Part shown: piece by piece, positions 1 through 28,704 of the stretch
Position numbering within the stretch: the stretch's first letter is position 1
Layout of the letters: every line of letters starts with the position of its first letter
Assembly: GCA_963422205.2 (NCBI GenBank)
Contig: CAXMWX010000003.1
Location: 160,001 to 224,000 of the forward strand
Source of the DNA: Gammaproteobacteria bacterium
GTDB lineage: Bacteria; Pseudomonadota; Gammaproteobacteria; Eutrophobiales; Eutrophobiaceae
Length of the DNA: 64,000 nucleotides
Direction: 5' to 3'
Position numbers and translations under genes: made by a program
Notes under the pieces: generated by a model
What the model was told of the DNA's origin: nothing
What the model saw: the letters and a program-made list of their open reading frames with translations, nothing else
The model's database searches: none

Positions 1-430
1 GATCAGGAAAGTAACCGGCGGTGATTCGCTTGCGTTCCTCATCGTTAAAGTCGGCCGCATTGTCCAGTATGAGGTAGTCGACCCGTTGCTCAAATCGCTT
101 GCTGAATTCGATGGCGATTTGCGCCCCGGTGGCACTGCCATACACACCCGCATTGACCAGGCCCAGCCCTTGACAGAACTGATCGAGGGCGGCGGCGTAA
201 TCGCTGATTTTAAGCCCCGCCCCCTGCAACTGATCGGAGTAACCGTAGCCTGGCGTATCCGGTGCAATGACCGTCACATAAGGAGACAAGACCCGGATAA
301 AGGGCAATAACGCATGAGAGGACACAGGTGAGGCGTGCAGCATGAGCAACACAGGCCCCTGGCCCTGCTGTCGATAATGTATCAACACCGGCGCCTCATC
401 ACTGCCGATATTAACGTAGCCGCGCCGCAT
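1..430 (-). CDS. alpha/beta hydrolase fold protein (runs off window start)
   Basis: Manual translation from ATG at 430: MRRGYVNIG..IHYRQQGQGPVLLMLHASP..VIAPDTPGYGYSD..GVYGSATGAQIA; absent from ORF track because it has no stop in the window. Confidence 0.85.
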   Translation of the reverse strand, partial: MRRGYVNIGSDEAPVLIHYRQQGQGPVLLMLHASPVSSHALLPFIRVLSPYVTVIAPDTPGYGYSDQLQGAGLKISDYAAALDQFCQGLGLVNAGVYGSATGAQIAIEFSKRFEQRVDYLILDNAADFNDEERKRITAGYFPD

Positions 431-444
431 TGAATAAAACCCGT

Positions 445-2031
445 TCAGTCCAGGCCGAGTGATTTGGGATTGATCCGCTTGTCGGGATCAACCAGCTGTT
501 TGATCGACTGGATGAGTTTCCAGTTATCCGGCTTGATACCTTCCCGGTAGTTGTATGATTTGGCAATCTGCAGGTGGATACCGCCCAGCTCGCAAAACAG
601 ATCGATCAACTCCTGACGGATCTTCTCTACCATCTCCCTCGCTGCTGCATTTTTTTCAAAACCGGGCAATTTCTTCAGTATCGACGGCTCGATGGTATCG
701 CGATGCAGATCCATCATCTCGTCCGGCCAGAAAAACACCGGCTCAACGACAAAGCCGTTGGTGGCGATAGTGGCGAATAAAAAGCCCACGCCGATTTCAT
801 ATTTTTCAATCTCTGCCGCATTCTCTGCAAATACCTTTTTGACAGCAGCAGTGGTCGCTACCGCTTTGGAGTGCGGAACAAGGGTATGGACGGGCACCCA
901 GCGTTCTCCCTGCGGGCCTACGATATTGTTTAAAGGTGTGAAGGGATTGGCGCGCAGGATTTTGGGAATGCTGTCTTTAATCTCCTTCCCCTCATGGCGT
1001 TTTGCGATGGCGCGGACTTCCTGCACAGCCGCCCCAGCCCCTGCCTCAGTACGATCCTCGATCATGATGTGTGCAGAATAGGCCACGTCTTTCATGAAGC
1101 GGCGCCCGGACAGCGCCAGCCTGGCCCCATCCTTGATTGCCCCGCTGATTGAACCGCTGGCGGCCAGCACGCCGGCGAAGGCCTTGACGTCTTTGGCCAG
1201 GCTCTCTCGCTGCATGCGTTGTGCTTGCAGGTAAGGATCAAACGCAAAACATTCCATGACGATACCTCGCCGGGAAATCTCGCTCATGGCAGGCAACATC
1301 GTCTTATAGGAGTCAAAATCAAATGAGAGAAAACGCCGCACGGGTAATTCCGGGATAAGCCGGAGGGTCGCCACGGCCTTAAAACCCAAAGCGCCGCTAT
1401 CGCAGGTAAACAGCCCCGTCAAATCCGGCCCGTAATAACGAAAAAACGGGGAGCCATTCAGCTGTGCATCCGAACCGGTGCTGATCATGCGGCCATCGGC
1501 CAGTACGACATCCAGTGAGATAACCGAATCCGCCGCACTGCCAAACTGGCCAGATCCCCAGAAGATGCCGTTTTGTGACAAACTGCCACCAATGCTCGCC
1601 TTAATCCCGGAAAGAGGACCCCAGAAAGGCGTACGCAGCCCGCTGCCATCCAGGGCCTTGTGTAATTCATGCCAGGTGCAGCCGCATTCGACTTTGACAT
1701 ACATATCTTCCCGGTTGATTTCCAGAACCCGATTCATGCGCCGCATATCGACCTGTATGCTGCCCGGCTCTGCCGGCAGGCAAGCACCGGTATAAGACAT
1801 CCCGCCACCCCGTGGCACGATGGCATGGCCTGCCTTGATGGTGGTGGCGATGACAGCGGCCAGTTCCTCGGTATTTAGCGGCTGCACAACGGCAAAAGCG
1901 GGGATACCCTGTTTGTAAATGTCCTGGGTATAAAACCGGCAACTGGCCGCATCGGTCAGGACGTAATCTGCACCGACAATGCTGCTTAACTCTGTAATCA
2001 ATACATCTTGATGGCGTGCCGCTTCAGCCAT
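445..2031 (-). CDS. FAD-binding oxidoreductase (VAO/GlcD-type FAD-linked oxidase)
   Basis: PRGGGMSYTG FAD-binding motif, SIGGSLS, C-terminal KQLVDPDKRINP. Confidence 0.9.
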   Translation of the reverse strand: MAEAARHQDVLITELSSIVGADYVLTDAASCRFYTQDIYKQGIPAFAVVQPLNTEELAAVIATTIKAGHAIVPRGGGMSYTGACLPAEPGSIQVDMRRMNRVLEINREDMYVKVECGCTWHELHKALDGSGLRTPFWGPLSGIKASIGGSLSQNGIFWGSGQFGSAADSVISLDVVLADGRMISTGSDAQLNGSPFFRYYGPDLTGLFTCDSGALGFKAVATLRLIPELPVRRFLSFDFDSYKTMLPAMSEISRRGIVMECFAFDPYLQAQRMQRESLAKDVKAFAGVLAASGSISGAIKDGARLALSGRRFMKDVAYSAHIMIEDRTEAGAGAAVQEVRAIAKRHEGKEIKDSIPKILRANPFTPLNNIVGPQGERWVPVHTLVPHSKAVATTAAVKKVFAENAAEIEKYEIGVGFLFATIATNGFVVEPVFFWPDEMMDLHRDTIEPSILKKLPGFEKNAAAREMVEKIRQELIDLFCELGGIHLQIAKSYNYREGIKPDNWKLIQSIKQLVDPDKRINPKSLGLD

Positions 2032-2226
2032 GTCTTTGATATACCTGCCTGTCTACTTTATATTGCTGCCAGTGAACCGGGCAGCTCTGACTAAGTGAAT
2101 ATATCCGGCAAATTCACCCTGCCCCGATTTCTCAAGTTGTTCTCAAGTTGTATTTAAATTATAACATTAATATCATTGTAAACCTGTATACGTTTTGATG
2201 ATTTTGTCATTTATCGGGGGCTTTCT

Positions 2227-3228
2227 ATGGCTGACAATACCCGGGTTTTACTCAAACAACCCTCAGCGGGTGTGCCCGAACCGGACGATTTTGAGCTGGT
2301 GGCCGGCGCAGAGGCCACGGCCGATGATGATCAGCTGCTGTGCGAGACTCTGTACCTGTCGCTGGATCCCTATTTGCGTGGCAAAATCAGCGGTCGCCAC
2401 ATATCCGGGAGCATTCTCCCCGGAGAACTCATGGCCGGTGAAGCCGTAAGCCGGGTGCTGGACTCAAAGGCGGCAGGCTTTACAGCAGGTGATATCATCA
2501 CCGCCCACAGCGGCTGGCAAAGTCACCCGGTGATTGATGCAAAGCATGCACGGCGTGTCGATCCAAATCTGGGCCCACTGTCCACCTCCTTAGGAATCCT
2601 CGGTATGCCGGGACTGACCGCCTATGCCGGCCTGTTGCGCCTGGGCGAGCCTGAAGCCGGTGATCTGCTGGTGGTCTCGGCCGCCTCCGGGCCGGTCGGA
2701 TCCATGGTCGGTCAAATCGCAAAAATCAAAGGCTGCCGGGCGATTGGTATTGCCGGTTCGGATGAGAAATGCCAATGGGTGGTTGAGGAGGCGGGCTTTG
2801 ATGGCTGCATTAATTATAAGAAAGAAGCCCTGCGAGAGGGCATTAAACGCGTATGCCCGGATGGCATGGATATGTATTTTGATAATGTCGGTGGGGAGGT
2901 GTTGCAGGCCGCGATGGAGAATCTGGCATTGCATGCCCGCGTGATCTTGTGTGGCCTGATGGCACAATACAATACTGACGCCATGCCGCCAGGCCCCAAT
3001 CCCGCTTTTATTATCAAGGCACGTGCCACCGTAAGAGGCATGGTCGTCTATGACCATGACGATCTCCGGGCGGAATTCGGGCAGGAATGCAGCCGATGGC
3101 TGAAGCAGGGCATGATCCACTACAAGGAAGATATGGCCGAGGGGCTGGCGGCGGCACCGGAGGCATTTTGTCGTCTGATGCGAGGTCAGAATTTTGGCAA
3201 AGCCATTGTGCGGGTTAATCCCGAATAA
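2227..3228 (+). CDS. NADP-dependent oxidoreductase (MDR, PTGR/CurA-like)
   Basis: YLSLDPYLRG, LGMPGLTAY, VSAASGPVGS, YFDNVGG, NFGKAIV motifs. Confidence 0.92.
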   Translation: MADNTRVLLKQPSAGVPEPDDFELVAGAEATADDDQLLCETLYLSLDPYLRGKISGRHISGSILPGELMAGEAVSRVLDSKAAGFTAGDIITAHSGWQSHPVIDAKHARRVDPNLGPLSTSLGILGMPGLTAYAGLLRLGEPEAGDLLVVSAASGPVGSMVGQIAKIKGCRAIGIAGSDEKCQWVVEEAGFDGCINYKKEALREGIKRVCPDGMDMYFDNVGGEVLQAAMENLALHARVILCGLMAQYNTDAMPPGPNPAFIIKARATVRGMVVYDHDDLRAEFGQECSRWLKQGMIHYKEDMAEGLAAAPEAFCRLMRGQNFGKAIVRVNPE

Positions 3229-3253
3229 TCAACTGTATAATATGGAGCAGCTT

Positions 3254-3733
3254 ATGAGCAAAACCCCGACTGATTTTCGTCGCATCACCTTGCTGGTCAA
3301 CGACATTGAAAAACCGCTGAAAATCTATCATGACATTCTGGGAATGAAAATCTACTACGATGATGAGATGACGCTCACGGGTGTGACCATACCCGCAGGC
3401 GAGCTGGATACGAAGGCGCGCCTGGTTATTCTTCAATGTAACGATCCCTATATCGGTATGCTCGGCATCCTTCAGTATCTCGATCCTCCCTTGCCTGAAC
3501 AAGGTGAGTACAGGAAACGCCTGGGGATTGGAGATAGTGTTTTTGTCATGAACCACGATGATGTACGTACCGTTTATGAACAGCTTAAAGAAATTGACGG
3601 GGTGCATATACAAAGCGAACCGTCCATATCGGAATACCCGAAACCTGATGGCGGCGTATTCAGACTGCTCGGTATCAGCTTCTTTGATCCGAACGGCTAT
3701 TTTATAGAAGTCAACCAATGGCTTGACAGATAA
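3254..3733 (+). CDS. VOC/glyoxalase family protein (cytoplasmic)
   Basis: RRITLLVNDIE..FFDPNGYFIEVNQ; GGAG RBS before ATG 3254. Confidence 0.85.
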   Translation: MSKTPTDFRRITLLVNDIEKPLKIYHDILGMKIYYDDEMTLTGVTIPAGELDTKARLVILQCNDPYIGMLGILQYLDPPLPEQGEYRKRLGIGDSVFVMNHDDVRTVYEQLKEIDGVHIQSEPSISEYPKPDGGVFRLLGISFFDPNGYFIEVNQWLDR

Positions 3734-3760
3734 GCGCCACTGGTCAAGCAGTTTCAGCAA

Positions 3761-4810
3761 ATGAATGAGGATCGAAATTGCCAGTGGCGTATCGCCGCCC
3801 GGCCAGCCGGCCATGTAAAGCCAACGGACTTTGCCTACACCGAAGAAGCGATCCCGGCGCCGGGTGCAGGCGAAATGCTGTTAAAGACGCTTTATCTTGG
3901 TCTGGCGCCGGTCATGCGTATGTATATGCAGGGTCTTGGCGTTGGCGGCCAGATGCCACTGGCACCTGGCGATGTTATTCATGGCCGGGGAGTGGCGGAG
4001 GTATTGCACTCCAATCACCCGGATTATCAGGCGGGTGACATCGTTCAGGGACAAACCGGCTGGCAAACCTATGCCGTCACAAAAGCAACGCCAACCGACA
4101 GATTTTATAAATGCAAGCACTATGATTTGCCGTATGAACTGGCCGCCGGTATCCTCGGCATGAATGGCTTGAGTGCTTACGGCGGCCTGCTTGATTGCGG
4201 CCAACCCAGGGCCGGCGATCTGCTGGTGGTCTCAGGTGCCGCTGGCGGCGTGGGAACAGTGGTCGTACAAATGGCCCGGATATTAGGTTGCCGCATCATT
4301 GGCATTGCTGGTGGGCCGGAGAAGTGTCGCTTTGTAAAAGAGCTTGGCTGCGAGCAAGCCATCGATTATAAAAATGACAATGTTGCAGAGAAGATTGCCG
4401 CCTATTGCCCGCAAGGCATGGACATTTATTTTGATAATGTCGGCGGTGAGATACTGTCCACCTGCCTGGAACATCTCGCCTACGAAGCGCGTATTGTGCT
4501 GTGCGGTTCAATTTCCGAATATACCAGGCAAGCGCCTTTTGCGTTAAGCAACTACACGAATCTAAGGGCGGTCAACGCCACCATGAAGGGCTTTTTCGTC
4601 TACAACTATGCAGAGCGCTTCTACGAGATGACAGATCAATTCGCCGCCTGGATAAAGGCAGGGCAACTGAAACCGGTGCAGGATATCGTGGATGGCTTTG
4701 AAAATATGCCTGCCGCACTGGCAAGGCTGTATGATGGAGATAATATCGGGGTACAGTGCTGTCGGGTACGTGGCGAGCCGGCATCAGGCCAACCAGCACA
4801 TGCAATATGA
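3761..4810 (+). CDS. NADP-dependent oxidoreductase (MDR), paralog of 2227..3228
   Basis: LGMNGLSAY, VSGAAGGVG, YFDNVGG motifs. Confidence 0.9.
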   Translation: MNEDRNCQWRIAARPAGHVKPTDFAYTEEAIPAPGAGEMLLKTLYLGLAPVMRMYMQGLGVGGQMPLAPGDVIHGRGVAEVLHSNHPDYQAGDIVQGQTGWQTYAVTKATPTDRFYKCKHYDLPYELAAGILGMNGLSAYGGLLDCGQPRAGDLLVVSGAAGGVGTVVVQMARILGCRIIGIAGGPEKCRFVKELGCEQAIDYKNDNVAEKIAAYCPQGMDIYFDNVGGEILSTCLEHLAYEARIVLCGSISEYTRQAPFALSNYTNLRAVNATMKGFFVYNYAERFYEMTDQFAAWIKAGQLKPVQDIVDGFENMPAALARLYDGDNIGVQCCRVRGEPASGQPAHAI

Positions 4811-6138
4811 CTGATACGCATGACTATCCAGCAACGAAATACGCCTGGTATATGGTGGTGTTGCTGACGATTGCTTATGTCTTCTCTTTTGTTGATCGCT
4901 ATATACTGGGGCTGCTTATCGAGCCGATTAAAGCGGATCTGGGCTTCTCCGATACCCAGATAGGTCTGCTGCTCGGGCCGGCCTTTGCTATTTTTTACGC
5001 CACCATTGGACTGCCGCTGGGCTGGCTGGCCGATCGTAAAAGACGCACCTGGATCATTGCCGCGGGCATTACCATTTGGTCGCTTGCCACTGCTGCCTCC
5101 GGTTTCGCCCGAAACTTCACGCACATGTTTATTGCCCGCATGAGTGTTGGCATTGGTGAAGCGGCGCTGGGGCCTTGCGCCATGTCGATGATCTCCGACA
5201 GCTTCCCCAAAGAGCGCCGTGGCCGGCCCATCGCTTTTTACACCATGGCCTTGTCAATAGGTGCGGGCCTCGCTTACATATTCGGTTCAACGGTGCTTGG
5301 CTGGGCGAGAACTGTTCCGAATATTGCGTTACCTGTTATTGGTGTTGTCGCTACCTGGCAATTCACTTTTATCGCCGTGGGCCTGCCGGGATTGATCCTC
5401 GCTATCCTGTTTTTTTTCATGCACGAGCCAAAACGCATGGATCAAAAAGACCACAGCAAAGAATCAGGGGCCAGCATTTTGGATATGCTGAAGTTTGTCG
5501 GTGTGCACTGGAGAACATTTATCACTTTTTTCCCGCTGTTTTGCTATATGACCATCGTTGCCTACAGCCAGGGCTGGTTAGCATCACTTTTCAAACGCAC
5601 CTGGGGTTGGGAAGCAGAGCAGTTTGCCCTGATAAAGGGATTAATACTGATCATTGTCGGCCCTGCCACCGTAAACGCCGCCGGCTGGTTCTCTGATCAT
5701 TTCTATAACAAAGGTATCAAGGATGCCCCTTTGATCATCCCCATCATTGGCACCTTCGTGATCGTCATTACCGGCACCGCCGCCCCGCTGATGCCAACTG
5801 CTGAGATAGCCATGTTCTTTTTTGGCTTGAACAATATTGGTATCGCCATGGCCTCCGCTACCGGCATTACCGCACTGCTCAATGTTGTTCCAGGGAAGAT
5901 CCGCGCCCAGATAGTCGCCTTTTATTACTTGTGTATCAGCATGAGCGGCTTGTTTCTGGGGCCAACCACGGTGGGCCTGCTGACCGACAATGTGTTTGGC
6001 CAGGAAAATCTACACTACGCCATGGCACTGTTGCCCCTGCTGTTTGGCGTGCCGGTGCTGGCGCTCATTCCATGGACGAGGCGCTGCTATAAACAGCGCC
6101 TTGTGTTAAGTGAGGCCGAAGAGCGTCAATCCACCTGA
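4807..6138 (+). CDS. MFS transporter (spinster-like)
   Basis: SFVDR, GWLADRKRR, RMSVGIGEA motifs, hydrophobic TM pattern; ATGA overlap with upstream gene. Confidence 0.92.
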   Translation: MTDTHDYPATKYAWYMVVLLTIAYVFSFVDRYILGLLIEPIKADLGFSDTQIGLLLGPAFAIFYATIGLPLGWLADRKRRTWIIAAGITIWSLATAASGFARNFTHMFIARMSVGIGEAALGPCAMSMISDSFPKERRGRPIAFYTMALSIGAGLAYIFGSTVLGWARTVPNIALPVIGVVATWQFTFIAVGLPGLILAILFFFMHEPKRMDQKDHSKESGASILDMLKFVGVHWRTFITFFPLFCYMTIVAYSQGWLASLFKRTWGWEAEQFALIKGLILIIVGPATVNAAGWFSDHFYNKGIKDAPLIIPIIGTFVIVITGTAAPLMPTAEIAMFFFGLNNIGIAMASATGITALLNVVPGKIRAQIVAFYYLCISMSGLFLGPTTVGLLTDNVFGQENLHYAMALLPLLFGVPVLALIPWTRRCYKQRLVLSEAEERQST

Positions 6139-6157
6139 GCGATAGCAGGTCAATCCA

Positions 6158-6955
6158 ATGCAACGACACTACCTCGATTCGTCTTTTGGGCAGATACATA
6201 TACGTCACCTTAAAGCAGAAGGCGACAAAACAGCGACCCCGCTGATCTGCCTGCATCCCATTCCCTACAGCGGCCTTTACTTTACCCGCCTCATGCCCCG
6301 GTTAAACCGGGGGCGTGATGTGCTGGCGCTGGACTACCCCGGCTATGGCGGGTCAGACCCCTTGACCGACAAGCCCGCCATCGGGGACTTCGCACAAGCG
6401 GTTATTGAAGCCCTTGATAATTCACATGTTGCCGGGCCTTTTGATTTGCTCGGTTTTCACACCGGCTGCCTGGTCGCCGGGGAGATTTCACTGCTTGAAC
6501 CGCAGCAGGCTAATCGGCTGGTCTTGATAGATGTGCCTTATTTTGACAACGCATCACGGGAACGCCTCTATGATCAGGTCACCCGGGGGAGCGCAATCAG
6601 CACCGAGCTGGAATGTCTGGCGCCCGCCTGGGAATTTAACATCAGCAATCGCATTAACGATATGCCACTGGAACGTGCCTTTGCATTGTTCGTTGAACAA
6701 TTACGCACCGGCAACAATACCACCTTCGGGTTTCATGCGGCATTCACCTATCCCTGTGAAGAACGATTTCCGAAAATCAAACACCCCGCCCTGGTGATTG
6801 CTACGCAATCGGGGTTGCTTGCGCCCAGCCGCCAGGCCGCCGGGATGTTAGCTGACTGTACGCTCAGGGAATGCCTGGAAATAGAACGGGCAGTGATGGA
6901 GACCGGTATAGAAAAAATTGCCAAAATCACCGATGATTACTGTCGCAAAAATTAA
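6158..6955 (+). CDS. alpha/beta hydrolase fold protein
   Basis: LICLHP, ALDYPGYGGSD, LLGFHTG at nucleophile elbow. Confidence 0.85.
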   Translation: MQRHYLDSSFGQIHIRHLKAEGDKTATPLICLHPIPYSGLYFTRLMPRLNRGRDVLALDYPGYGGSDPLTDKPAIGDFAQAVIEALDNSHVAGPFDLLGFHTGCLVAGEISLLEPQQANRLVLIDVPYFDNASRERLYDQVTRGSAISTELECLAPAWEFNISNRINDMPLERAFALFVEQLRTGNNTTFGFHAAFTYPCEERFPKIKHPALVIATQSGLLAPSRQAAGMLADCTLRECLEIERAVMETGIEKIAKITDDYCRKN

Positions 6956-7036
6956 AATTCATGGTCACACAATACATGGTCTGAGGGTTTAAGAAAGCCC
7001 GTTACATGCTCAACCAACAGATGCAGTGAGATATTA

Positions 7037-8467
7037 ATGTCAGTCGATAAAAATGTATTCGATGTAAATTCTCATCCGCTATCACGCCGTCGCTTTCTAT
7101 GCTATGGCGCAATGCTGGCGGCAAGCACCGGGATCAGACCGGTATTTGCTGAACAAAAACGCTATGACGTGCTTGTTATTGGCGCCGGTTTGGCCGGGCT
7201 GCAATGCACCCGTCTGCTTCAACAACACGGGATATCCACCCTGCTGCTGGAGGGCGGCGATCGTGTTGGTGGTCGTGTTCATACCCTGGATGAACTGGAA
7301 GGCAGGCCCGAAGCCGGCGGCACACAGACCGGGACGGGCTACACTGCGCTCAATCAGGTGGCCGATGAACTACAGATTACATTCACATCGATGCGCCCGG
7401 GCATGCCTGGTATGACGCTATCGATCAAAGGTGAGCTGATGGACGCCGACACCTGGGAGAACAGCGCGGTGAATCAACTCACCGAACCCTATCGAAAAAT
7501 ACAGCCAAGAGGATTAATGTACGCCTTGCTGGCCAGGGGCGAGCAATTAACCACTCCTCTGGCATGGAATACAACAGCAAACGCCCGCCTGGATATCCCC
7601 CTGTCCGCCTACCTGACATCTCTTGGGGCAGATAAAGAAATGCTGCGTTTGATTAACGCTAACCTTAATGGCACAGGTGTCGATCAGATTTCCGCTGCTG
7701 ATGTATTACGTAAAAGCCGTGTGTTGCAAAGTGCAGGCGGCCCGCAACGGATCAAGGGCGGCAGCCAGCGCCTGCCCGATGCACTGGCGGCCACATTAAC
7801 ATCCCGGGTACAGCTCAACAAACCTGTTGTAGCGATTAATGATACAGGCAGGCACATCGCCGTCATCTGTGCTGATGGCAGTCAGTATCTGGGCGAGCGC
7901 GGCATCATTGCCCTGCCTTACAGCGTACTAAGGCATATCAGGATAGATGCCCCGCTATCGCCAGCCAAACAATCAGCGATCAATAAACTGGCCTATACAC
8001 CGGTCACCATCACGCTGATGCAGCCGAGCAGCCCGTTCTGGCTTGAAGATGGCCTCAGCCCTGCCATGTGGACAGACGCCCCTGTTGGCAGAATTTTTAC
8101 CGAAACCGATGACAATGGCGAGCTTATACGCATTCGTTCCTGGGTCATGGGGCCGTTTGCGGAGCGGCTGAACAAGATGACTGATGACGCCACGGGCGAA
8201 TTCATCAAAGAGACTCTTGCACGCTTGCGCCCTTCAACAAAAGGCAAATTAGAAGTTGAAAAAGTGATCTCCTGGGGGCGCAACCCGCTCGCCCGTGGTG
8301 CGTTTTCCCACTACCTTGCTGGTGATGTACAAGGCTTTTCTCACATAATCGGCAAACCCGAGGGCAGGCTGCATTTTATCGGCGAGCACACCGCCCCGGA
8401 AGCCGCAGGCATGGAAGCTGCCATATTATCGGCAAACCGAGGCGCACTGGAAGTGATGAACGTCTGA
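7037..8467 (+). CDS. Tat-exported flavin monoamine oxidase family protein
   Basis: SRRRFL twin-arginine signal, VIGAGLAGL..LEGGDRVGGR, HFIGEHT..GMEAA. Confidence 0.9.
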   Translation: MSVDKNVFDVNSHPLSRRRFLCYGAMLAASTGIRPVFAEQKRYDVLVIGAGLAGLQCTRLLQQHGISTLLLEGGDRVGGRVHTLDELEGRPEAGGTQTGTGYTALNQVADELQITFTSMRPGMPGMTLSIKGELMDADTWENSAVNQLTEPYRKIQPRGLMYALLARGEQLTTPLAWNTTANARLDIPLSAYLTSLGADKEMLRLINANLNGTGVDQISAADVLRKSRVLQSAGGPQRIKGGSQRLPDALAATLTSRVQLNKPVVAINDTGRHIAVICADGSQYLGERGIIALPYSVLRHIRIDAPLSPAKQSAINKLAYTPVTITLMQPSSPFWLEDGLSPAMWTDAPVGRIFTETDDNGELIRIRSWVMGPFAERLNKMTDDATGEFIKETLARLRPSTKGKLEVEKVISWGRNPLARGAFSHYLAGDVQGFSHIIGKPEGRLHFIGEHTAPEAAGMEAAILSANRGALEVMNV

Positions 8468-8565
8468 TGCGTGTTTTTTTAAGGTGCTTGTCCGCGGTCT
8501 CTTCCAATACGGGGAAAGCCGGATTGCAGAAGCCCTTTGCGAAAGCTATGATAATGATCAAGGTC

Positions 8566-18733: not shown

Positions 18734-20628
18734 CTAGAACTGATAACCTACGCGAAAAATAACCTGTCGTGGTGCAACATATTGCTCTGACGTTTGGCCG
18801 ACACCGAACACATTGGTCCAGCGCGCATTAATCTCATCGTCATCCGCCAGGTTGGTAAGGAGCAGATCCAGATTCCAGTCGGCATCATCCGGCTGGTAGC
18901 TAAAGGACAGATCCCAAATATCAGAGGCAGGCACTCCTAGCCCCGGGTCATTGAAGATCGTATAGTCATAGCTGCCGACATGGGTGTAGGTGAGAGACGA
19001 TGTCAACAAGCCGGCGGGCATTTGCCAGGCGTGGGTCAATGTGATGTTGGCAGAAAACTTGGGCAATTTCGGTGGCTTGTTGCCGTTGAGATTGACCACT
19101 GAATCGTCCCCCAAGGTGGCTTGCCCCTGTGACCTTGCCAGACGTGCTGTCAAGGGGCCAATTGCCCGATGATCTGTGTCAACTTCACCATCCAGAAATG
19201 AGAGGTTCGCATCCAGCCGCAGGGTATGCGGCGCGGTATCTATCAGCAGCCCCTGAAACTCGGTTTCCAGCCCGTATATTCTGACATTATCCACATTGCC
19301 GACACCGTTAGTAAAGCGCCTGAAGTTGTCGCCGTGAAACTGAAAGCCGTCGTAGTCATAAAGAAATGCCGCCGCATTCAACTGATACCTGCCATCGCCA
19401 AACCGGCTTTTCAGTCCCAGTTCAAAAGACGTGACTTCCTCTTCTGCAAACACATCGTCAATTAAGGATTCAGCCCCTCTTTCATTCAGCGTATTGACGC
19501 CGCCCGGTTTCAGGCCGGTGGTCACGGCAAAATAAACCATGGCATCAGCCAGTCTATGCGGCTGTCGTCTGCATTGGAAATCAGGTCGATTTCCTGGGTG
19601 AGAATATCCCGGTCCTCACTGATAATACCGACAACGGCCTGAGGTCGGAAAAAGCTGGGGTCGCCCAGGTCGCTGTCCCGATTGCGCTCCACAGCCTCCA
19701 CATCCTGAAAGGCGGTAATGCTTTTGAGTGTCGCCCAGGACATGTCGTACTGCATTTCAAGATCTACCGATTGTTGATCGATATCGGTGGTGCCCACCTG
19801 ATTCTGCCGCACTCGCCGAACATCGGTTCCCGGATCCAGAACATTGCGCTGGCCGTTGGCGTTGGTATCGCTTTTGTACTTGCTAGCGCGCAATACCGCA
19901 GAGAACTCGGCGGTCGGCTGCCACAGGAATTGCCCGCGGATGGCCAGATTGTCGGCCTCGTCAAGTTCAGTGCCCGCCAATGCGGTATCGACAATTTCCG
20001 TGAAACCATCGCGTGTGTGCCGGGATACAGCAATGCGCGCCGCGGTGGTATCGCCGAGCGGGATGTTGACCATGGCCCTGGCCTTCAGGTGAGCGTAGTT
20101 GCCGACCGCAAGATCGGTCTTGCCTTCAAACTGATTCAACTCCGGACGGCGGGTGGTAATGTTGATAGCGCCGCCGGTGGAGTTTTGCCCGAACACAGTT
20201 CCCTGCGGGCCGCGCAACACCTCGATGCGCTCCACATCCAGAAAATCGGCATTCAGCGAATAGGTAAACGGCATAAACACCCCGTTGACATGCATGGCCA
20301 CACCGGGCACTGACTGCCCGTTTTGGTTGGCCTCATGACCAATGCCACGGATGGTGACAACCTGCTTTGGCCCTTCGTTCTTGTTGATCGTCAATCCCGG
20401 CACCTTGCCGCTGAGATCGACAACGCTGTTGATATTGGCGCGATCCAGACCCTCGGCGGTAAAGGCCGAGACGGCGACCGGCGTCTCCTGAAGACTGGTC
20501 TCCCGCTTTTCGGCTGTTACTGTGATTTCTTCTAAAACTGAAGCAGCATGAGCAAACAGGGAGCCTGTGGCGAGAACAATCCCCGAAATCATGGTTGCGA
20601 AAGCTGCTGGGTTTTTCTGATGATTCAT
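18734..20628 (-). pseudogene. TonB-dependent receptor with internal deletion and frameshift
   Basis: N-part (LEEITVTAEKR..ERIEVLRGPQG) ends at IDWL; C-part resumes in another frame at DAMVYFAVTTGLKPGG and ends RVGYQF. Confidence 0.85.
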
Positions 20629-21578
20629 GATTTTTTCCTGGAACTGGTGAGTTAAGTGGTAATTAAAATTGAATTAAAAATTGCTTTTCTTGCGGCCTGG
20701 AAAGTATCACTGATTGTGATCACAGTAAATGATGCTTTGAAGAATCTTATCAGTCCCCTGGTCACCGGCAAATTTAACGTCTGCATTGATTTTGAACAGC
20801 ACAACGTGTGACCATACAGCCTGGAATATGCGGTTGTTGCCACCGATATTAACAACAGCAGTCGCCGCAAACCGCCCCTGGGCAGCTGTGCCAGATCCCC
20901 CGTGCCACTTACCAATACCTTCGTCAAGCGGGCTGCCCGTGGCGATGTCAACATCCCCCTGTTTCGCACCAACCGGCCATGCAGAACGCCGTACCTGCCG
21001 CCAGGGCGACCATCGCCTTTCGCAACCCCCCCGACATGGATACCGATAACTCCCTCCGCTTTATGCCCCAGGCCGCCATCGGAAACTGGCTGAGACTGAA
21101 AGGATAACCGCTGGGCGGAGACGAACCATGCCCAGGTATGGCCAGGTATGACGATTACAGAAACGGGGCAACGGCCGCCGGGTGACGCTGGTCAATCCGT
21201 CGCTGCCGATTCAAGATAGCCGATCGCCTCCATGAAACAACAGGTCTGGGAAACCACAGGTCTGGGGCGTGATGATTGCTAACCTAAGGATACTTTCAAC
21301 TCAACCAGATGGGAGAGAACGCTGCTGGGGTAGCGAATGCCCTGTGCTTCAGAGACGCCGAAGGCGATGATTTCCATGCGGTGCAGGATGGTCTGGAAGG
21401 GGCATACTGCTGGCCGGTCCGGTCACGCCATAGGGCCTCAGCCACAGCGCCGTTTGACATTGACCGCCGACGATCTGCATGGAACCGTGCCGCTCATGAT
21501 CGCCGCTCTTCCGTGAACATGTCGTATGCACAAGAGTACGACCCTGGCTGGCGAACCAGCAGTGGCCGTATTGTCAGG

Positions 21579-22175
21579 CTATTTCAACTCAGACAGCAGT
21601 TGATTTAACTCCACCACATACCCGTCCGGGTCAATCAGCACGCTGACTTTTACCTTGATCATGCCCTTGCCCTGATAGTCTGGGTATTGCGTCTCGCTGG
21701 GCTCGTCCAGGACCTTCACGCCCAGGGTGTTGCGCGCCGCCTGAAAACGGGATTCGAGGTTATCGGTATTGAACACCAGCACGATACTGCCGACAGAAAA
21801 CGGCTCTGCCCCCTGATGTGCGGACTGTTTTGCGGGCTTTGCATATTGCAACAGGCCAATGACGCCGATGTAATCATCATTGGCCTGCAAGAACACCAGG
21901 CGCAGGGCACTCTCGGCAGCGGCAATATTCTTCGCATCGCGCGGGGTGAAGATCTCCCGATCATAGATCACTTTTAACCCCAGGGCATCGCGATAAAACG
22001 CCAGCGATTGATCGATATCCCGAACCACCAGCGTGGTGCGCCGCAGATCAATGTCAACGCGCTCGGCTTCCGGTACTGGCGCTGCCTGGACGCTCGCCGC
22101 ACCCACCACCTGACCACCAGCCAGAATGCCGCACAGCAGGATGCACCACAGCGTTTCTCGCACAGGGCTAGTCAT
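21579..22175 (-). CDS. secreted VOC/glyoxalase family protein
   Basis: Signal peptide, DLRRTTLVVRDID..LIDPDGYVVELNQ; overlaps DUF1838 stop. Confidence 0.85.
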   Translation of the reverse strand: MTSPVRETLWCILLCGILAGGQVVGAASVQAAPVPEAERVDIDLRRTTLVVRDIDQSLAFYRDALGLKVIYDREIFTPRDAKNIAAAESALRLVFLQANDDYIGVIGLLQYAKPAKQSAHQGAEPFSVGSIVLVFNTDNLESRFQAARNTLGVKVLDEPSETQYPDYQGKGMIKVKVSVLIDPDGYVVELNQLLSELK

Positions 22176-23064
22176 CTTGCTGCTGCCGTTGGTTATCGAT
22201 GAATTTTTTGAAGTAAGTCCAGCTTGTCTCGTTTTTGCGGTCATCATCACCGGGCGGCGGCTTGGTGTATTCAGGGTAATTGGTCTTGATCTCCTGCTTG
22301 ATTAACATCGGCAGATCATCCCAGCTTTTCAGGTTTTTACCCGTGGCGTTGACATACATGAGGCCAGGGCGGCTGCCCATCCTCATCCACGGCAGCCATT
22401 GCGCTATCCTCACCCAGGCGATATTTATGGACGCCGTGTTCTTCGACAGATCGGCAAAATCATCAAGCCGGGCAGAGAAATCAAAGATCTCGGTGGCGTG
22501 ATAATTGCCGCCGACATATTCCTGATAATCACCGCCCAGCGCGTTGGTGTAGAACAGCGGGATTTCATAATTGATGAACGCTGTACCATCGATCACCTCG
22601 AACTGAAAGCGGCTTTCCTTGCCGTCCCTGCCGATGGGAAACTGCGGCGGCTGATTCACCGGATCATTGGCGACATGAATGACCTTGACCGTCTCGCCCG
22701 TCCAGGGGTTATCCCATTCCCTGAGTATTGCGCCAGTCTGCGGGTCAAGATACAGCATGAGCTCACGCGAGACCTTGCGAAAACCCTCGCCCCTTGCCTT
22801 GTCCTTCACCGTGACGCATTGCCGCACGTTCATGCCAAGCACGCCGAACAGCAGCTTGTCACGCTCCCCGGGCACCCGAGAGTAGGCCCGGCCCTTCCAT
22901 ACATAGGTGACGTGTTCGTTGTCTTTCAGCGAGCATAACAGCTTGCGCTTCGCCTGCACGGCGCCCTCGCCGGTATTAAAATCAATGGTTTTGCCCGCTT
23001 CGGCAGGGGGTATCACGACCAGCAGCAGGCTGAGGATCAGCAAGGCGGATAGTTTGTCAGGCAT
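22168..23064 (-). CDS. secreted DUF1838 family protein
   Basis: GRAYSRVPGE, SRELMLYLDP, NPWTGETVKVIHVANDPVN, WLPWMRMG; signal peptide; GGAG RBS. Confidence 0.85.
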   Translation of the reverse strand: MPDKLSALLILSLLLVVIPPAEAGKTIDFNTGEGAVQAKRKLLCSLKDNEHVTYVWKGRAYSRVPGERDKLLFGVLGMNVRQCVTVKDKARGEGFRKVSRELMLYLDPQTGAILREWDNPWTGETVKVIHVANDPVNQPPQFPIGRDGKESRFQFEVIDGTAFINYEIPLFYTNALGGDYQEYVGGNYHATEIFDFSARLDDFADLSKNTASINIAWVRIAQWLPWMRMGSRPGLMYVNATGKNLKSWDDLPMLIKQEIKTNYPEYTKPPPGDDDRKNETSWTYFKKFIDNQRQQQDD

Positions 23065-23457
23065 GGCGTTCTCTCCCATAAGGGGTTGTAAACGATGCCT
23101 GTTATCATACTCGTTGCGGCGGCAGGTACAAGCCGAAATTAAGCGGCGTTTGCTGGCTGGCTTCGGCGCATGGGCGTGGCTCAAGATTGCTCACGCCAGC
23201 GAATATCAGTTTTTCTATGCGGGGCGATGCAAGCGCACAAGCACAGGTTGATCAGGCTCTGGTAAGGAACGCCATTCTCAAAACAACACCAATTTTGGCT
23301 GGGAATGAGGTGAATACAGGCGGCAAGACGCTGAATAAGGTCTCGGCAACGCGGGTTGGTTGACGTTGGATTTGAGCAGCACTATAAGCTATAGTTTGCC
23401 AAGAGTGTCGTATCCTTACGTAATGATACTTTTGCCGACTTGAACATGTATTAGCTG

Positions 23458-24033
23458 ATGTCTACCTCTGCTCATAAAACTCATCCAGTCGCGACCTATC
23501 AGGATGTGCTGGATGCACCGCCGCACAAGGTGGCTGAGATTATCGCCGGTACGCTGTACATGAATCCCAGGCCAGCGATGAGTCATGCCTGGGCGAGTTC
23601 CATCTTGGGTGATGAGTTGGTAAGCCCCTTTGGCCGTGGTCGGGGCGGCCCGGGCGGCTGGTGGATTATTGATGAGCCGGAGTTGCACTTCGGTCAGGAT
23701 ATTCTGGTGCCCGATCTCGCTGGCTGGCGACGTGAGACCATGCCGGTGTATCCGGATGCGGCTTACTGTACGATTGCCCCGGACTGGGTCTGTGAGGTAT
23801 TATCGCCCTCAACCCGCCAGCTCGATTTGACCGACAAGCGCGACATCTATGCCCGTGAAGAGGTCACTTACCTGTGGTTTGTCGACCCGGACGTGCGTAC
23901 GCTGGAGGCATTTCAACTTAAAGGTGGCGCATGGTCGCTGATCGCCTCATTAGCCGGTGATGCCGCCGTCTCCGTTCCCCCGTTTGATGCCATCAGTTTT
24001 CCGCTGGCTGCGCTATGGCCGGATACGGAATAA
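23458..24033 (+). CDS. Uma2 family (PD-(D/E)xK) endonuclease, copy 1
   Basis: AEIIAG, LVPDLAGW, APDWVCEVLSPST, KRDIYA, WFVDP. Confidence 0.9.
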   Translation: MSTSAHKTHPVATYQDVLDAPPHKVAEIIAGTLYMNPRPAMSHAWASSILGDELVSPFGRGRGGPGGWWIIDEPELHFGQDILVPDLAGWRRETMPVYPDAAYCTIAPDWVCEVLSPSTRQLDLTDKRDIYAREEVTYLWFVDPDVRTLEAFQLKGGAWSLIASLAGDAAVSVPPFDAISFPLAALWPDTE

Positions 24034-24089: not shown

Positions 24090-24668
24090 ATGATGCCCAC
24101 ACCTGCCCGTAAAACTCATCCAGTCGCCACCTATCAGGATGTGCTGGATGCACCGCCGCACAAGGTGGCTGAGATTATCGCCGGTACGCTGTACATGAAT
24201 CCCAGGCCAGCGATGCGGCATGCCTGGGTGAGTTCTGTTATGGGCGGGGAGCTGTTCAACCCCTTTGGTCGTGGTCGCGGCGGCCCCGGTGGCTGGTGGA
24301 TTATCGATGAGCCGGAGTTGCACTTCGGTCAGGATATTCTGGTGCCCGATCTCGCTGGCTGGCGACGTGAGACCATGCCGGTGTATCCGGATGCGGCTTA
24401 CTGTACGATTGCCCCGGACTGGGTCTGTGAGGTATTATCGCCCTCAACCCGGCAGCTGGACTTGACGGACAAGCGCGACATCTATGCCCGTGAGGGGGTC
24501 ACTTACCTGTGGTTTGTCGACCCGGACGTGCGTACGCTGGAGGCGTTTCAACTTAAAGGTGGCCTATGGTCGCTGATCGCCTCATTAGCCGGTGATGCCG
24601 CCGTCTCTGTTCCCCCTTTTGATGCCATCAGTTTTCCGCTGGCTGCGCTATGGCCGGATACGGAATAA
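24090..24668 (+). CDS. Uma2 family endonuclease, copy 2 (tandem duplicate)
   Basis: Near-identical to copy 1 in DNA and protein. Confidence 0.9.
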   Translation: MMPTPARKTHPVATYQDVLDAPPHKVAEIIAGTLYMNPRPAMRHAWVSSVMGGELFNPFGRGRGGPGGWWIIDEPELHFGQDILVPDLAGWRRETMPVYPDAAYCTIAPDWVCEVLSPSTRQLDLTDKRDIYAREGVTYLWFVDPDVRTLEAFQLKGGLWSLIASLAGDAAVSVPPFDAISFPLAALWPDTE

Positions 24669-26015: not shown

Positions 26016-28496
26016 CTAAAAACGATACCTCGCAGTAATGCCGATGCGGCGCTCATCCGGCAGCGTCAGGCCGATGGCTCTGTCAAATAGAAAGCTGGGG
26101 AATCCTGCAGATACGTAGCGGATTAGCGCGGGCGATGTGTCGTTGTTAAGGACATTGTTCACCCATAACTCGATATCGAAGCTATCGCTGCGGATACCGC
26201 CGCGCAGGTTGACAATCTCGCGTGCGCCCGTGTGGGCAAGATTGTACACTTGCGCGTAGCGCTTGGAGTTGTAATTGAAATCGGTACGCAGAAACCAACC
26301 GAAGTTTGCGGTAAGGTCGCCAGTGAAGGTATTGGACAGGTTCAACTGATGCCTGGAGACCTGCGGCAACTCGGTGCCGGTGATCAGCACATCGCCGCCG
26401 GGCTGGTAGCCGAACAGCAGGGCGGCCTCCCTGAATGCGCTGCCCGCAGTGGCGCCAGCATCGACCGATTGGATGAATCTGTCAATTTTGCCGTCGGTCA
26501 GCGCATAGCCCAGGTACACATTCCAGAAGTCCGTCACATCAAGGGCCAGTTCCAACTCCACGCCATTGATGGTGGATTTGCCGATGTTTTGCAGGATGGA
26601 GAACGTGCGATTCTGATTCCTGACCCTGGCGGCGCGGGTGACAGTCAGTTGCTGATCCTTCCAGTCTATGTGATAGACGGCGACGTTGGCACGCAGGCGG
26701 TCATCCAGCCACAGGGATTTCACGCCCAATTCATAGCTCCAGGCGGTCTCCTCATCGTAATTGCGATCAGCGGCAGGCGTACCCTCTGCACTGTTCAAGC
26801 CGCCCGGCTTGTTGCCGCGTGCCATATTGGCATAGACGGTCAGGTTGTCTGCGGGCTGGTAGCGGGCGGTAAACTTGGGCAGGAACTTGCTGAAAGCCCC
26901 TTTGACATCGGTATCAGGAATGGGAGCCATCTCGTCTCGGAAAAACTTGAAGCGATCCTTGTTGTAGCGGAACGTGGCGCCCAGGGTGAGCGTGTCGGTG
27001 AAATCAAACTCCATAGCGCCGAACACCGACCAACTGGTTATCTCGTTTTTACCATCATCGGTGGCCGACATACCCCCCTCGCTGTAGAACGCCCTTGCGT
27101 TGCTTGAGTTAATACTCGTGCCCGTATCTTCCGAGGTATAATAGTAGCTGCCCACCATGTGGCGCATCCCCTCCCCGTCATACGCCAGCCTTAACTCCTG
27201 CGAGAAATCATCAAATCTCCCACGCTCAAAGGTAAGAAAACCCACCCTTCCCGCAGGGATAAAGGGGACTGGCGGCCTGGTCAAGTCCCCACCGCCAAAG
27301 GTCTGATCCTGCCGCAATTTATTATCAAACTCGTTATAACCGGTGACGGAGGTGAACGTGAAGGTGTCGGTGAGGTCGTACTCCAGCTTCAGACCCAGCC
27401 GCAGGCTTTTGGTCTCCGTGCCAAAATTATCATAGAAGCTGGTCTCCAGATTGGTTGCACCGTTGTTGGTCGCCAGCACATCGTCCACATCCACACGCCC
27501 GCAGTAATAGCCACTGCCCCTGTACGGGGCTGAATTTACAAAATTGGCACCCGCTTCCGGCGTACCGGGGGGGGGGGCAGGCTGGGACAGCGGCATACCA
27601 TCTGCGCCGGTGCTCCTGTTCGGGTTGCGTGCGCCGGTGATGAAGCAGTTGTTAAAGCTGGGGGGTTGCAGGGCGATGGCATATTGATCGTCATCCGTGC
27701 GCTCATACATGGCATGGGCGGTGATGTTCAACTGTTCAACCGGGTTGAAGGTAAACACGGCCACCGCGCTGCTGGTCTCCTCACCGCCCACCTCATCGTT
27801 GATGGCTGGCGTACCCAGGCTGTTGGCGGCATAACTGTTATCGTATTCGCCATCGCGCTGGTAGCGGGCGAGGGTGAGGGCGAAACCGGCCACTTCTGTG
27901 ATCGGGCCGCTGACATGGGCCTCGGCGCGAATGTAATCACGCTCGCCATACTCGGCGGTCACCTCGCCTTCAAAGTCCTCGGTGGGCTTTTTCAGCACAT
28001 AGTTCACTGCACCGGCCAGGGTGGAACGGCCATACAAGGCACTTTGCGGGCCCTTGACCACCTCGACGCGCTCCAGCGCAGACAGCGGCACAGTGGCCGC
28101 GCCACGTTCGATGATAATGCCGTCTATGAACAGCCCCGCGTTGGCGCGCCCTATGATGGTGGACTGACCGCGAATGGCCGGGCGGAAATCCTGCCGCCCG
28201 AAGGCCTGCGCGAAGTCAAAACCCGGCGTGGCATCGGCGATGTTGTTCAGAGAGGCGATGCCGCGCTCTTCCAGCACAGATTTGGTGAAGGCGTTGACGG
28301 TAAGCGGGATGTCTTGCAGGCTCTCCTCGCGCTTGCGTGCCGTGACCGTGATTTCTTCCAGGATGACTTGCGAGTAGCTGTGCAGCGGGAGAAACGACGT
28401 GGCGGTGAACAGGGCGAGTGCGGCGAGCGCACCTGCTGGTCGTCTGCCTGTACTCCGGCGGGCGGATACGGAAGGGGTTGTTGTGTCAATACGCAT
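26016..28496 (-). CDS. TonB-dependent receptor
   Basis: Signal peptide, LEEITVTARKREE, LERVEVVKGPQSALYG, C-terminal ARYRF. Confidence 0.93.
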   Translation of the reverse strand: MRIDTTTPSVSARRSTGRRPAGALAALALFTATSFLPLHSYSQVILEEITVTARKREESLQDIPLTVNAFTKSVLEERGIASLNNIADATPGFDFAQAFGRQDFRPAIRGQSTIIGRANAGLFIDGIIIERGAATVPLSALERVEVVKGPQSALYGRSTLAGAVNYVLKKPTEDFEGEVTAEYGERDYIRAEAHVSGPITEVAGFALTLARYQRDGEYDNSYAANSLGTPAINDEVGGEETSSAVAVFTFNPVEQLNITAHAMYERTDDDQYAIALQPPSFNNCFITGARNPNRSTGADGMPLSQPAPPPGTPEAGANFVNSAPYRGSGYYCGRVDVDDVLATNNGATNLETSFYDNFGTETKSLRLGLKLEYDLTDTFTFTSVTGYNEFDNKLRQDQTFGGGDLTRPPVPFIPAGRVGFLTFERGRFDDFSQELRLAYDGEGMRHMVGSYYYTSEDTGTSINSSNARAFYSEGGMSATDDGKNEITSWSVFGAMEFDFTDTLTLGATFRYNKDRFKFFRDEMAPIPDTDVKGAFSKFLPKFTARYQPADNLTVYANMARGNKPGGLNSAEGTPAADRNYDEETAWSYELGVKSLWLDDRLRANVAVYHIDWKDQQLTVTRAARVRNQNRTFSILQNIGKSTINGVELELALDVTDFWNVYLGYALTDGKIDRFIQSVDAGATAGSAFREAALLFGYQPGGDVLITGTELPQVSRHQLNLSNTFTGDLTANFGWFLRTDFNYNSKRYAQVYNLAHTGAREIVNLRGGIRSDSFDIELWVNNVLNNDTSPALIRYVSAGFPSFLFDRAIGLTLPDERRIGITARYRF
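27567..27577. repeat. G11 homopolymer inside TBDR coding region
   Basis: G11 on the plus strand, encodes APPP. Confidence 0.85.
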
Positions 28497-28562
28497 GATG
28501 GTTGCCTCTTTGAAGTTTGATGTATTGTGGCCTTTATTTAAGGGGTATCTATGCGACTATAC

Positions 28563-28578
28563 GTTATAAACTTATAAC
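28563..28578. promoter_or_regulatory. palindrome GTTATAA-AC-TTATAAC upstream of TBDR
   Basis: Perfect 7-bp dyad, similar to GTTATATATTTGTAAC at 13381-13396. Confidence 0.6.
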
Positions 28579-28704
28579 ATTTGCATGATAGCGCGGGCGC
28601 CCCCTGTGTCAAACGGTGTTGTAAAAATAGACAAGCCAGGTGTTGATTTAAAGTGCAAGTAATGTAAGCAGTTAGGCTGTTTGCGAGAGATTTATCCTCG
28701 CATT

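Follow-up and report, generated by a model that had tools for sequence, protein, structure and literature searches.

Gene content of the island

The DNA analyzed here, called the window below, is a stretch of 64,000 nt from a gammaproteobacterial genome (contig CAXMWX010000003.1, positions 160,001 to 224,000), and the feature under study is the ~28.6 kb island at window positions 1-28600 (all positions are in window numbering). The island combines TonB-dependent receptors (TBDR), inner-membrane carriers of the MFS family, exported proteins of the DUF1838, VOC and CpcT types, and a set of cytoplasmic redox enzymes. Gene identities were obtained from the open reading frame (ORF) listing and Pfam scans of the window together with structure models and N-termini, with signal peptides and twin-arginine translocation (Tat) motifs read from the N-termini by eye, without a prediction program. 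In the gene names, MDR denotes an ene-reductase, AmOx an amine oxidase, FADox an FAD oxidase and abh an alpha/beta-fold protein. The genes are as follows.

2-430, minus strand: abh0, N-terminal part of a 568-residue tandem alpha/beta-fold protein (Abhydrolase_1); the gene runs beyond the left window edge
445-2031, minus strand: FADox, cytoplasmic VAO/PCMH flavoprotein (FAD_binding_4, 120.5 bits)
2227-3228, plus strand: MDR1, NADPH double-bond (ene) reductase (ADH_N_2 and ADH_zinc_N)
3194-3733, plus strand: VOCc, cytoplasmic protein of VOC/glyoxalase fold (Glyoxalase, 29.9 bits)
3761-4810, plus strand: MDR2, second ene-reductase (ADH_N_2, 99.8 bits)
4756-6138, plus strand: MFS1, inner-membrane carrier (MFS_1, 140.8 bits)
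6158-6955, plus strand: abh1, alpha/beta-fold protein whose nucleophile position is His (Abhydrolase matches)
7037-8467, plus strand: AmOx, Tat-exported flavin amine oxidase
8572-9459 (ORF from 8467), plus strand: DUF1838a, exported barrel protein (PF08894, 218.8 bits; signal peptide)
9483-10562, plus strand: VOCa, exported two-domain VOC-like protein directly after DUF1838a, with an in-frame TAG
10577-13204, minus strand: TBDR1, Plug and barrel domains
13475-14473, plus strand: CpcT-like, exported two-domain CpcT-fold protein (fold match; Pfam CpeT 15.8 bits)
14522-15898, plus strand: MFS2 (MFS_1, 182 bits)
16598-17857, minus strand: MFS3 (MFS_1, 103 bits)
17949-18578, minus strand: Tat deaminase-like ORF, probably degenerate (dCMP_cyt_deam_1, 27.5 bits)
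18734-20628, minus strand: TBDR2, split into ORFs 19522-20628 (Plug part, 368 residues) and 18734-19540 (barrel part, 268 residues)
21579-22250, minus strand: VOCb, exported VOC protein that follows DUF1838b (Glyoxalase, 43.4 bits; signal peptide)
22168-23064, minus strand: DUF1838b, exported barrel protein (PF08894, 249.6 bits; signal peptide)
23458-24033 and 24090-24668: tandem Uma2 genes (putative restriction endonuclease family), between DUF1838b and TBDR3
between DUF1838b and TBDR3: an EEP nuclease gene
26016-28496, minus strand: TBDR3, Plug and barrel domains

Eight of these genes, MDR1 through VOCa, form a continuous run on the plus strand (2227-10562). Signal peptides are present on both DUF1838 proteins, VOCa, VOCb and the CpcT-like protein, and twin-arginine motifs are present on AmOx and the deaminase-like ORF, while the N-termini of FADox, MDR1, MDR2, VOCc, abh0 and abh1 carry no export signal. 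TBDR1 and TBDR3 each hold a Plug and a 22-strand barrel within a single frame; TBDR2 has both parts, in two frames. Receptors are concentrated here, as the 29 Plug matches in the 2.99-Mb genome correspond to an expectation of 0.28 per 28.6 kb versus the 3 that are observed (Poisson P ~0.003). DUF1838, the CpcT-like protein, FADox, AmOx, abh1 and all three VOC types are confined to this one locus, with no copies elsewhere in the genome. An Rfam scan of window positions 1-30000 gave no family, riboswitches included, at gathering score.

An earlier note, written from the sequence alone, had listed three TBDR genes, three related MFS genes and a cytoplasmic redox set, two DUF1838 genes each with an exported VOC gene next to it, a secreted CpcT/CpeT-like protein, a Tat amine oxidase and two atypical hydrolases. 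Pfam scans, models and N-termini bear out this inventory, with the qualifications that one receptor is split, that VOCa is interrupted by a TAG and that the CpcT-like protein is recognized by its fold match at a sub-threshold Pfam score. Additions to that list are the probably degenerate deaminase-like ORF, the Uma2 pair and the EEP nuclease gene. The two atypical hydrolases are abh0 and abh1, whose elbows are non-canonical. The compartment layout drawn in that note (receptors, exported proteins, MFS carriers and cytoplasmic redox enzymes) likewise agrees with the N-termini as read.

Recurrence of the neighborhood in other genomes

DUF1838 was found at at least 579 places in a species-level genome set. 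Using this family as an anchor, we examined 80 loci with up to 10 kb on each side and sorted them into 44 lineage groups at 75% DUF1838 identity. Counts were taken after overlapping matches had been resolved; they come from sampled genomes, among which relatives do not count as independent. The island families recur around the anchor as follows.

TBDR: 39 of 80 loci, 22 of 44 groups
amine oxidase: 25 loci, 12 groups
VOCb/c: 24 loci, 17 groups
ene-reductase: 22 loci, 16 groups
FADox: 21 loci, 14 groups
abh0: 14 loci, 10 groups
MFS1-3: 11 loci, 9 groups
CpcT-like: 11 loci, 8 groups
abh1: 9 loci, 8 groups
VOCa: 8 loci, 6 groups

Uma2, the EEP nuclease, the deaminase-like ORF and a hypothetical ORF at 29009 were each found at none of the 80 loci. 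A recurring operon, close to which FADox, MDR1 and the CpcT-like gene are found, has the order DUF1838-VOC-(MDR)-VOC-MFS1-abh1. It is carried by loci L049, L057, L068, L069, L072, L073 and L079 and by genome G238 of the class sample, and occurs in records labelled as Woeseiaceae, Caulobacterales and Kordiimonas.

The association is also seen in the reverse direction. Of 80 metagenome loci for which the CpcT-like gene served as anchor, 18 contain DUF1838, mostly as the adjacent gene; among the 35 loci that are at least 10 kb long, 10 do. Both families are rare: DUF1838 occurs in 6 of 400 other genomes of the class (an even sample) and in neither of two genomes of the window's family, and the CpcT-like protein occurs in 2 of 399 class genomes, the strong one of these matches being located 12 kb away from the DUF1838 gene of its genome. 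The recurrence of DUF1838 and the CpcT-like protein together is far beyond chance for two rare families. Co-occurrence elsewhere had been set beforehand as a test of the earlier note, and the island genes do recur around both anchors. Pieces of the island are present in many water-dwelling Proteobacteria.

The DUF1838 family

DUF1838a (218.8 bits) and DUF1838b (249.6 bits) both score far over the PF08894 cut-off of 25 bits and are 45% identical to each other, with DUF1838a belonging to the subtype that is found beside CpcT-like genes elsewhere. The model of DUF1838b (pLDDT 91) shows a beta-barrel followed by helices. Foldseek gave nothing convincing (TM <=0.28), and a wide fold search returned BFA1 (Z 8.6), CpeS (7.9), Rv2717c (7.8) and nitrobindins (6.7-6.9), a range that the tool calls common. 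The fold search suggested by the earlier note thus gave a well-modelled barrel together with borderline similarities (Z <=8.6, TM <=0.28). Neither sequence nor profile searches found a solved relative (profile E < 0.1), and a look-up in the ESM Atlas gave no usable match. A profile-profile comparison with the CpcT-like family gave a probability of 2%, and a complex prediction for the CpcT-like protein (residues 30-332) with DUF1838a (residues 24-295) gave a score of 0.00, that is 'no answer', which speaks neither for nor against binding.

The family comprises 878 representative clusters at E <= 0.001 among 1.84 billion. Across 65 members of ~30% identity, the polar residues E101, D107, N119, N133, Y188 and R219 are conserved in at least 90%. 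Long forms carry DUF1838 in tandem in 13 of 14 cases, and in 4 of 19 long representatives (P0337, P0357, P0389 and P0394) a cytochrome b5-like haem/steroid-binding domain is fused to DUF1838. These fusions give a weak hint that the partner of DUF1838 may be an electron carrier containing haem, or else a ligand resembling haem. One of the fusions, P0337, is from the red alga Porphyridium aerugineum; in another representative, P0281, DUF1838 is joined to a Coq4 domain.

Literature searches (supplements not covered) found no publication that addresses what DUF1838 or exported CpcT-fold proteins do, none for PF08894 and none for CpcT together with TonB-dependent. In the extracts of the literature that were found, DUF1838 appears only as a name in gene tables of Streptomyces clusters. 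Assignment of DUF1838 to the piperazate synthase family was considered and dropped, as the extracts of papers on azinothricin-type clusters list DUF1838 in gene tables only and no solved relative was found at E < 0.1.

The exported CpcT-fold protein

The CpcT-like protein scores 15.8 bits against Pfam CpeT (PF06206), under the cut-off of 21, while most of its listed homologues have a precomputed PF06206 match. In its model (pLDDT 85), residues 34-215 match the T-type lyases and Arabidopsis CRL with Z 16.5-16.8 over 132-170 aligned residues (rmsd 1.7-2.9 A). The top values are 16.8 to 5hi8, 16.8 to 6lix and 16.7 to 4o4s, versus 10.0 for the next fold group, and Foldseek gives a probability of 1.00 to the T-type lyase fold. 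Additionally, the family profile matches CpcT itself (4o4o, E 3.6e-5), with two conserved cysteines of the family aligning with Cys116 and Cys137 of 4o4o. By fold and profile, the modelled protein is a CpcT homologue, one that lies outside the biological definition of that family in being exported and in being encoded in a genome with no phycobiliprotein.

The barrel of residues 34-215 is common to the T-type lyases CpcT/CpeT (4O4O, 4O4S, 5HI8) and Arabidopsis CRL (6LIX). In contrast to the T-type lyases, the window protein starts with a signal peptide, ends in an additional beta domain (residues 215-332) to which no match was found, and is encoded next to receptors, DUF1838 and MFS carriers. 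No phycobiliprotein (PF00502) was found in the 98%-complete genome, with a Synechococcus positive control that did match, so that any bilin would have to come from outside.

In one metagenome lineage (L114-L131 and similar loci) the CpcT-like gene lies near gamma-glutamyltranspeptidase (GGT) in 20 of 80 loci and near glutathione S-transferase (GST) in 18 of 80. Both enzymes act on conjugates of thiols, a noteworthy setting for a protein related to a lyase that forms thioethers. This context may be plain lineage synteny, because RmuC, FKBP and rpoC are found there too.

The amine oxidase

AmOx matches PF01593 with 156.4 bits, and its N-terminus carries SRRRFL followed by a hydrophobic stretch, as expected of a periplasmic Tat type. 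The nearest solved relatives are monoamine oxidases (MAO) and L-amino-acid oxidases. No cytochrome c gene was found in 1-28600, where CxxCH strings occur only out of frame inside MFS1 and DUF1838a. According to extracts of PMC12224317, Tat-exported members of this family that have no cytochrome c encoded alongside are mostly quick to react with O2, while an adjoining gene for a Sec-exported cytochrome c is the criterion for a NicA2-type dehydrogenase. AmOx has the Tat signal and the flavin amine oxidase domain in common with NicA2 and with Pnao, as described with CycN in the same extracts, and differs from NicA2/CycN in that the island lacks a cytochrome c partner. Because of this lack, AmOx would, by the criteria in those extracts, more likely be an O2-using periplasmic oxidase than a dehydrogenase.

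Cytoplasmic enzymes, VOC proteins and carriers

FADox aligns with its PDB relatives over the FAD domain only, as its substrate domain has no close solved relative; with abh0 it forms a gene pair that is recurrent across loci. MDR1 and MDR2 score 381 and 302.9 bits against the CurA equivalog NF058644, both under its cut-off of 440. MDR2 aligns over its full length with 4b7c (E 3.7e-85), and the best PDB relatives are double-bond reductases. Overall the two enzymes resemble the LTB4 12-hydroxydehydrogenase/CurA group (4b7c), but both lie below the CurA equivalog cut-off.

The elbow of abh1 reads GFHTG, and GFH[TS]G is kept in all nine aligned sequences from distant lineages (GFHSG in one). The elbows of abh0 read GSATG in domain 1 and GDSAA in domain 2, with G[ST]ATG in 7 of 12 aligned sequences. 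Serine hydrolases have Ser, Cys or Asp at this position, and neither abh1 nor abh0 does. To our knowledge, no enzyme of the alpha/beta fold has been described that carries His at this elbow. Some abh0-like proteins share the His-elbow motif of abh1.

VOCc (29.9 bits) and VOCb (43.4 bits) exceed the PF00903 cut-off of 20.6, the C-terminal part of VOCa lies just under it (19.6), and VOCc and VOCb are 32% identical. The likely start of VOCb overlaps the stop of DUF1838b. Among the carriers, MFS1 and MFS2 are 42% identical and MFS3 is 31-32% identical to both. MFS1, which stands in the conserved operon with VOC, MDR and abh1, has TIGR00893 as its nearest NCBIfam model, at a score below the cut-off.

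Disrupted genes, insertion and rearrangement

Three genes of the island are disrupted. An in-frame TAG interrupts VOCa at 9855-9857; orthologues of this protein (325-362 residues) have V, D, G or A in the stop column of the alignment, and the column after that holds Q, Y, F or P. The stop looks recent, because the flanking sequence is still conserved on both sides. The two ORFs of TBDR2 overlap by 19 bases and combine to 636 residues, versus 727-832 in the nearest homologues. The deaminase-like ORF, which covers only positions 3-82 of the 102 in its profile and has a low-complexity tail, reads HAK where its family is expected to read HAE, and homologues of it are absent from the DUF1838 loci. 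In a second sample of the same study, contigs (depth ~500) are identical and gap-free over all three defects, so that the defects belong to the DNA itself and did not arise as artefacts of a single assembly; this comparison involves two runs, one of which is possibly the source of the window itself.

The nearest relatives of the island (L003, L004 and L007) have the order amine oxidase, receptor, DUF1838, MFS, and the island is rearranged relative to these. The TBDR3 orthologue directly precedes DUF1838 in all three loci. In the island the Uma2 and nuclease genes are inserted between DUF1838b and TBDR3. The tandem Uma2 genes are 94% identical to each other, and the family has 10 tblastn matches in the genome (78-99% identity), several of them in tandem (contigs C9 and C11). 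The pair looks like a repeated two-gene cassette inserted at this point. The VOCb-DUF1838b pair is flanked by a perfect 14-nt inverted repeat (21309-21322 and 23066-23079), of which an estimated ~0.02 pairs are expected by chance per 2.9 kb, and which may be the trace of an inversion relative to related loci.

Gene remnants were sought by blastx against the locus proteins in the gaps 15899-16597, 20629-21578 and 28497-30700, without a match, and the stretch 17858-18733 that holds the deaminase-like ORF likewise matched no locus protein. The two genomes of the same family have no orthologue of FADox, DUF1838 or the CpcT-like protein; these genomes are distant, with flanking housekeeping proteins 44-46% identical.

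A companion locus and other regions of the window

The window lacks a number of families that are often seen next to DUF1838 at other loci, namely CN_hydrolase (26 loci), CoA_transf_3 (23), Aldedh (22), FAD_binding_3 (18), GntR/UTRA (11) and DUF1330 (10). Most such companion families cluster at a second locus of the same genome, at 250-284 kb of contig C11 (L172 and L173), which holds GntR/UTRA, CoA_transf_3, HMGL-like, MFS, DUF1330, CN_hydrolase, Aldedh, TBDR and unnamed families. Four of these, CoA_transf_3, HMGL-like, u12 and u29 (the last two being unnamed families), share 62-67% identity there with the copies that flank DUF1838 elsewhere, while the rest are 23-43% identical; the best FAD_binding_3 matches of the genome lie outside this locus, on contigs C7 and C4. 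Many genes of the second locus are orthologues of DUF1838 flankers in other genomes. It also holds amidohydrolases, an aconitase-type hydratase pair, an AstE/AspA-type deacylase and an ABC-2/DUF3526 transporter.

Further into the window, 46092-63795 is a catabolic region with genes for MFS, amidohydrolase, IclR, hydantoinase A and B, MFS, VOC, AraC and Zn-ADH, a VOC gene adjoining a fourth TonB receptor, a LigB-type dioxygenase and an AMP-binding ORF whose match covers only the latter half of the profile. Additionally, at 33515-37284 a squalene-hopene cyclase gene directly adjoins an N6/N4 DNA methylase gene.

A proposed uptake and breakdown system

We interpret the island as an accessory, modular system for the uptake and breakdown of one organic compound or a related set, a reading that we hold somewhat better than even (a probability of about 0.55). 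The substrate probably carries nitrogen and an unsaturated or aromatic part, because the amine oxidase, the ene-reductases and the VAO-type oxidase, along with C-N hydrolases and amidases from the wider set of recurring genes, all fit such a compound. From the gene families, export signals, folds and recurrence described above we infer a shared substrate class, an order of steps and a role for each enzyme. The TonB-dependent receptors would carry the compound, or a small related set, over the outer membrane, and in the periplasm the Tat-exported AmOx would oxidize a C-N bond. The DUF1838 paralogues and the CpcT-fold protein, together with the exported VOC-fold enzymes, would hold or convert the ligand, and the MFS carriers would then move the product into the cell. 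There it may be acted on by the VAO-type flavoprotein, the two NADPH ene-reductases, the VOC protein and the two non-canonical alpha/beta-fold proteins, with later steps presumably encoded at the second locus by the CoA-transferase, the HMG-CoA-lyase-like enzyme, the C-N hydrolase and the aldehyde dehydrogenases.

A number of observations weigh against this interpretation. The Pfam scan found no regulator gene in the island, and the intergenic regions of the island share only chance-level 11-12-mers and one 14-mer pair as operator-like words. In the CpcT-anchored set, 62 of 80 loci are without DUF1838, and one lineage has GGT, GST, RmuC and FKBP there instead. Fifteen of the 80 DUF1838 loci have no window family in their stored flanks (many of these contigs are short), and no neighbor is universal. 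Receptor enrichment by DUF1838 is modest for receptor-rich taxa. The three receptors and three MFS carriers may mean that there are several substrates, and the island may be only partly active because three genes are disrupted. Finally, half of the DUF1838-flanking families reside at the second locus and not in the island, which counts against proof of one pathway. The staged pathway for a single substrate that the earlier note had proposed therefore stands in part: compartment layout and co-occurrence agree with it, while varied composition, rearrangement, the three disrupted genes and the companions on contig C11 make a single pathway for one substrate less certain.

Alternatively, the island could be a mosaic in which separate small modules for different substrates have piled up in a flexible region of the genome, the candidate modules being receptor with DUF1838 and VOC, amine oxidase, VOC-MDR-MFS-abh, FADox with abh0, and CpcT-like with MFS. 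Neighbor composition does differ between loci, gene order is rearranged against L003, L004 and L007 with the Uma2/nuclease insertion in addition, receptors and MFS carriers are each present three times, and there is a further receptor/VOC/MFS region at 46-64 kb of the window. We nevertheless regard such a mosaic, the main rival, as unlikely, as the same modules meet again in distant lineages from both anchor directions and the DUF1838 and CpcT-like families are rare in genomes. A quite different function, in which the cytoplasmic set clears reactive electrophiles such as quinones and unsaturated aldehydes with no part in nutrition, is suggested by the placement of the MDR genes in the alkenal/one double-bond reductase group and by the VOC and hydrolase-fold proteins that accompany them; quinone resistance in Bacillus is served by such sets. 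TonB receptors, importer-type MFS carriers and an exported amine oxidase would all be superfluous for detoxification, however, and the companion genes for CoA-transferase, HMGL-like enzyme, aldehyde dehydrogenase and C-N hydrolase point to assimilation, so that we consider this function improbable.

The island could also serve in scavenging bilins, with the CpcT-fold protein binding or detaching the pigment, DUF1838 carrying or converting it, and ene-reductases and C-N hydrolases opening it for nitrogen. The CpcT fold was the sole support for the phycobilin substrate suggested in the earlier note, and the same fold occurs in Arabidopsis CRL, which acts outside phycobilisomes. Several observations are consistent with a bilin. 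The fold of the N-terminal domain is that of T-type lyases (Z 16.5-16.8 versus ~10 for the next group), and the cysteine pair aligning with Cys116/Cys137 of 4o4o is retained. The genome itself encodes no phycobiliprotein, the model of DUF1838 shows similarity at borderline Z (6.7-7.9) to the barrels of S-type lyases and nitrobindins, and one DUF1838-b5 fusion is from a red alga. A fold alone reveals no ligand, however, and the Pfam scan found no haem oxygenase, bilin reductase or peptidase among the annotated ORFs of the island. It is hard to see what the amine oxidase would do to a bilin, and the carriers include sediment, soil-type and deep-water lineages. A bilin substrate is therefore, in our judgement, very improbable; literature searches (supplements not covered) on phycobilin degradation by heterotrophs gave no relevant paper among the matches listed. 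An N-heterocycle or another nitrogen compound would fit the recurrent C-N hydrolases, amidases and amine oxidase. A broader form of the idea, that heterotrophic Proteobacteria have a dedicated periplasmic route for pigment-type or hydrophobic nitrogen compounds of phototroph debris, for example bilin-peptides, also seems to us a long shot. Such a route would jointly imply that the CpcT-fold protein is a reverse lyase or ligand receiver behind a TonB receptor, that the DUF1838 proteins are new periplasmic barrel enzymes or carriers with a redox link indicated by the b5 fusions, and that the His-elbow alpha/beta-fold proteins are a new catalytic type.

Relation to known systems and significance

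The uptake and breakdown system that we favor has parallels among known systems. Loci that contain TBDR genes, called 'CUT' or PUL-like, are known, and the receptor is common to these and the island, which differs in lacking both SusD-like and glycoside hydrolase genes. DdvT/DdvK of Sphingobium sp. SYK-6 reportedly combine a TonB receptor with an MFS carrier for uptake of aromatic acids, the same pairing of outer-membrane receptor and MFS carrier as in the island, with different protein families. TynA/FeaB of E. coli carry out periplasmic amine oxidation followed by cytoplasmic aldehyde oxidation; the periplasmic first oxidation would correspond to that proposed for the island, again with different protein families. 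In kind, the island is a TonB-receptor nutrient locus whose content is new and includes several uncharacterized families.

TonB-receptor loci set which dissolved organics marine and freshwater bacteria import, and a substrate is known for a minority of them. The island joins at least four families without a known role, namely DUF1838, the exported CpcT-fold protein, the alpha/beta-fold proteins with His or Ala at the elbow and the two exported VOC types. Its recurring context includes cultured species, among them Exilibacterium tricleocarpae R142 (L008), Pelagerythrobacter marinus H32 (L040) and Brevundimonas aurifodinae C11 (L055), so that the function is directly testable. If the substrate is a pigment or an abundant nitrogen-rich compound of phototrophs, the system would constitute an undescribed branch of carbon and nitrogen turnover.

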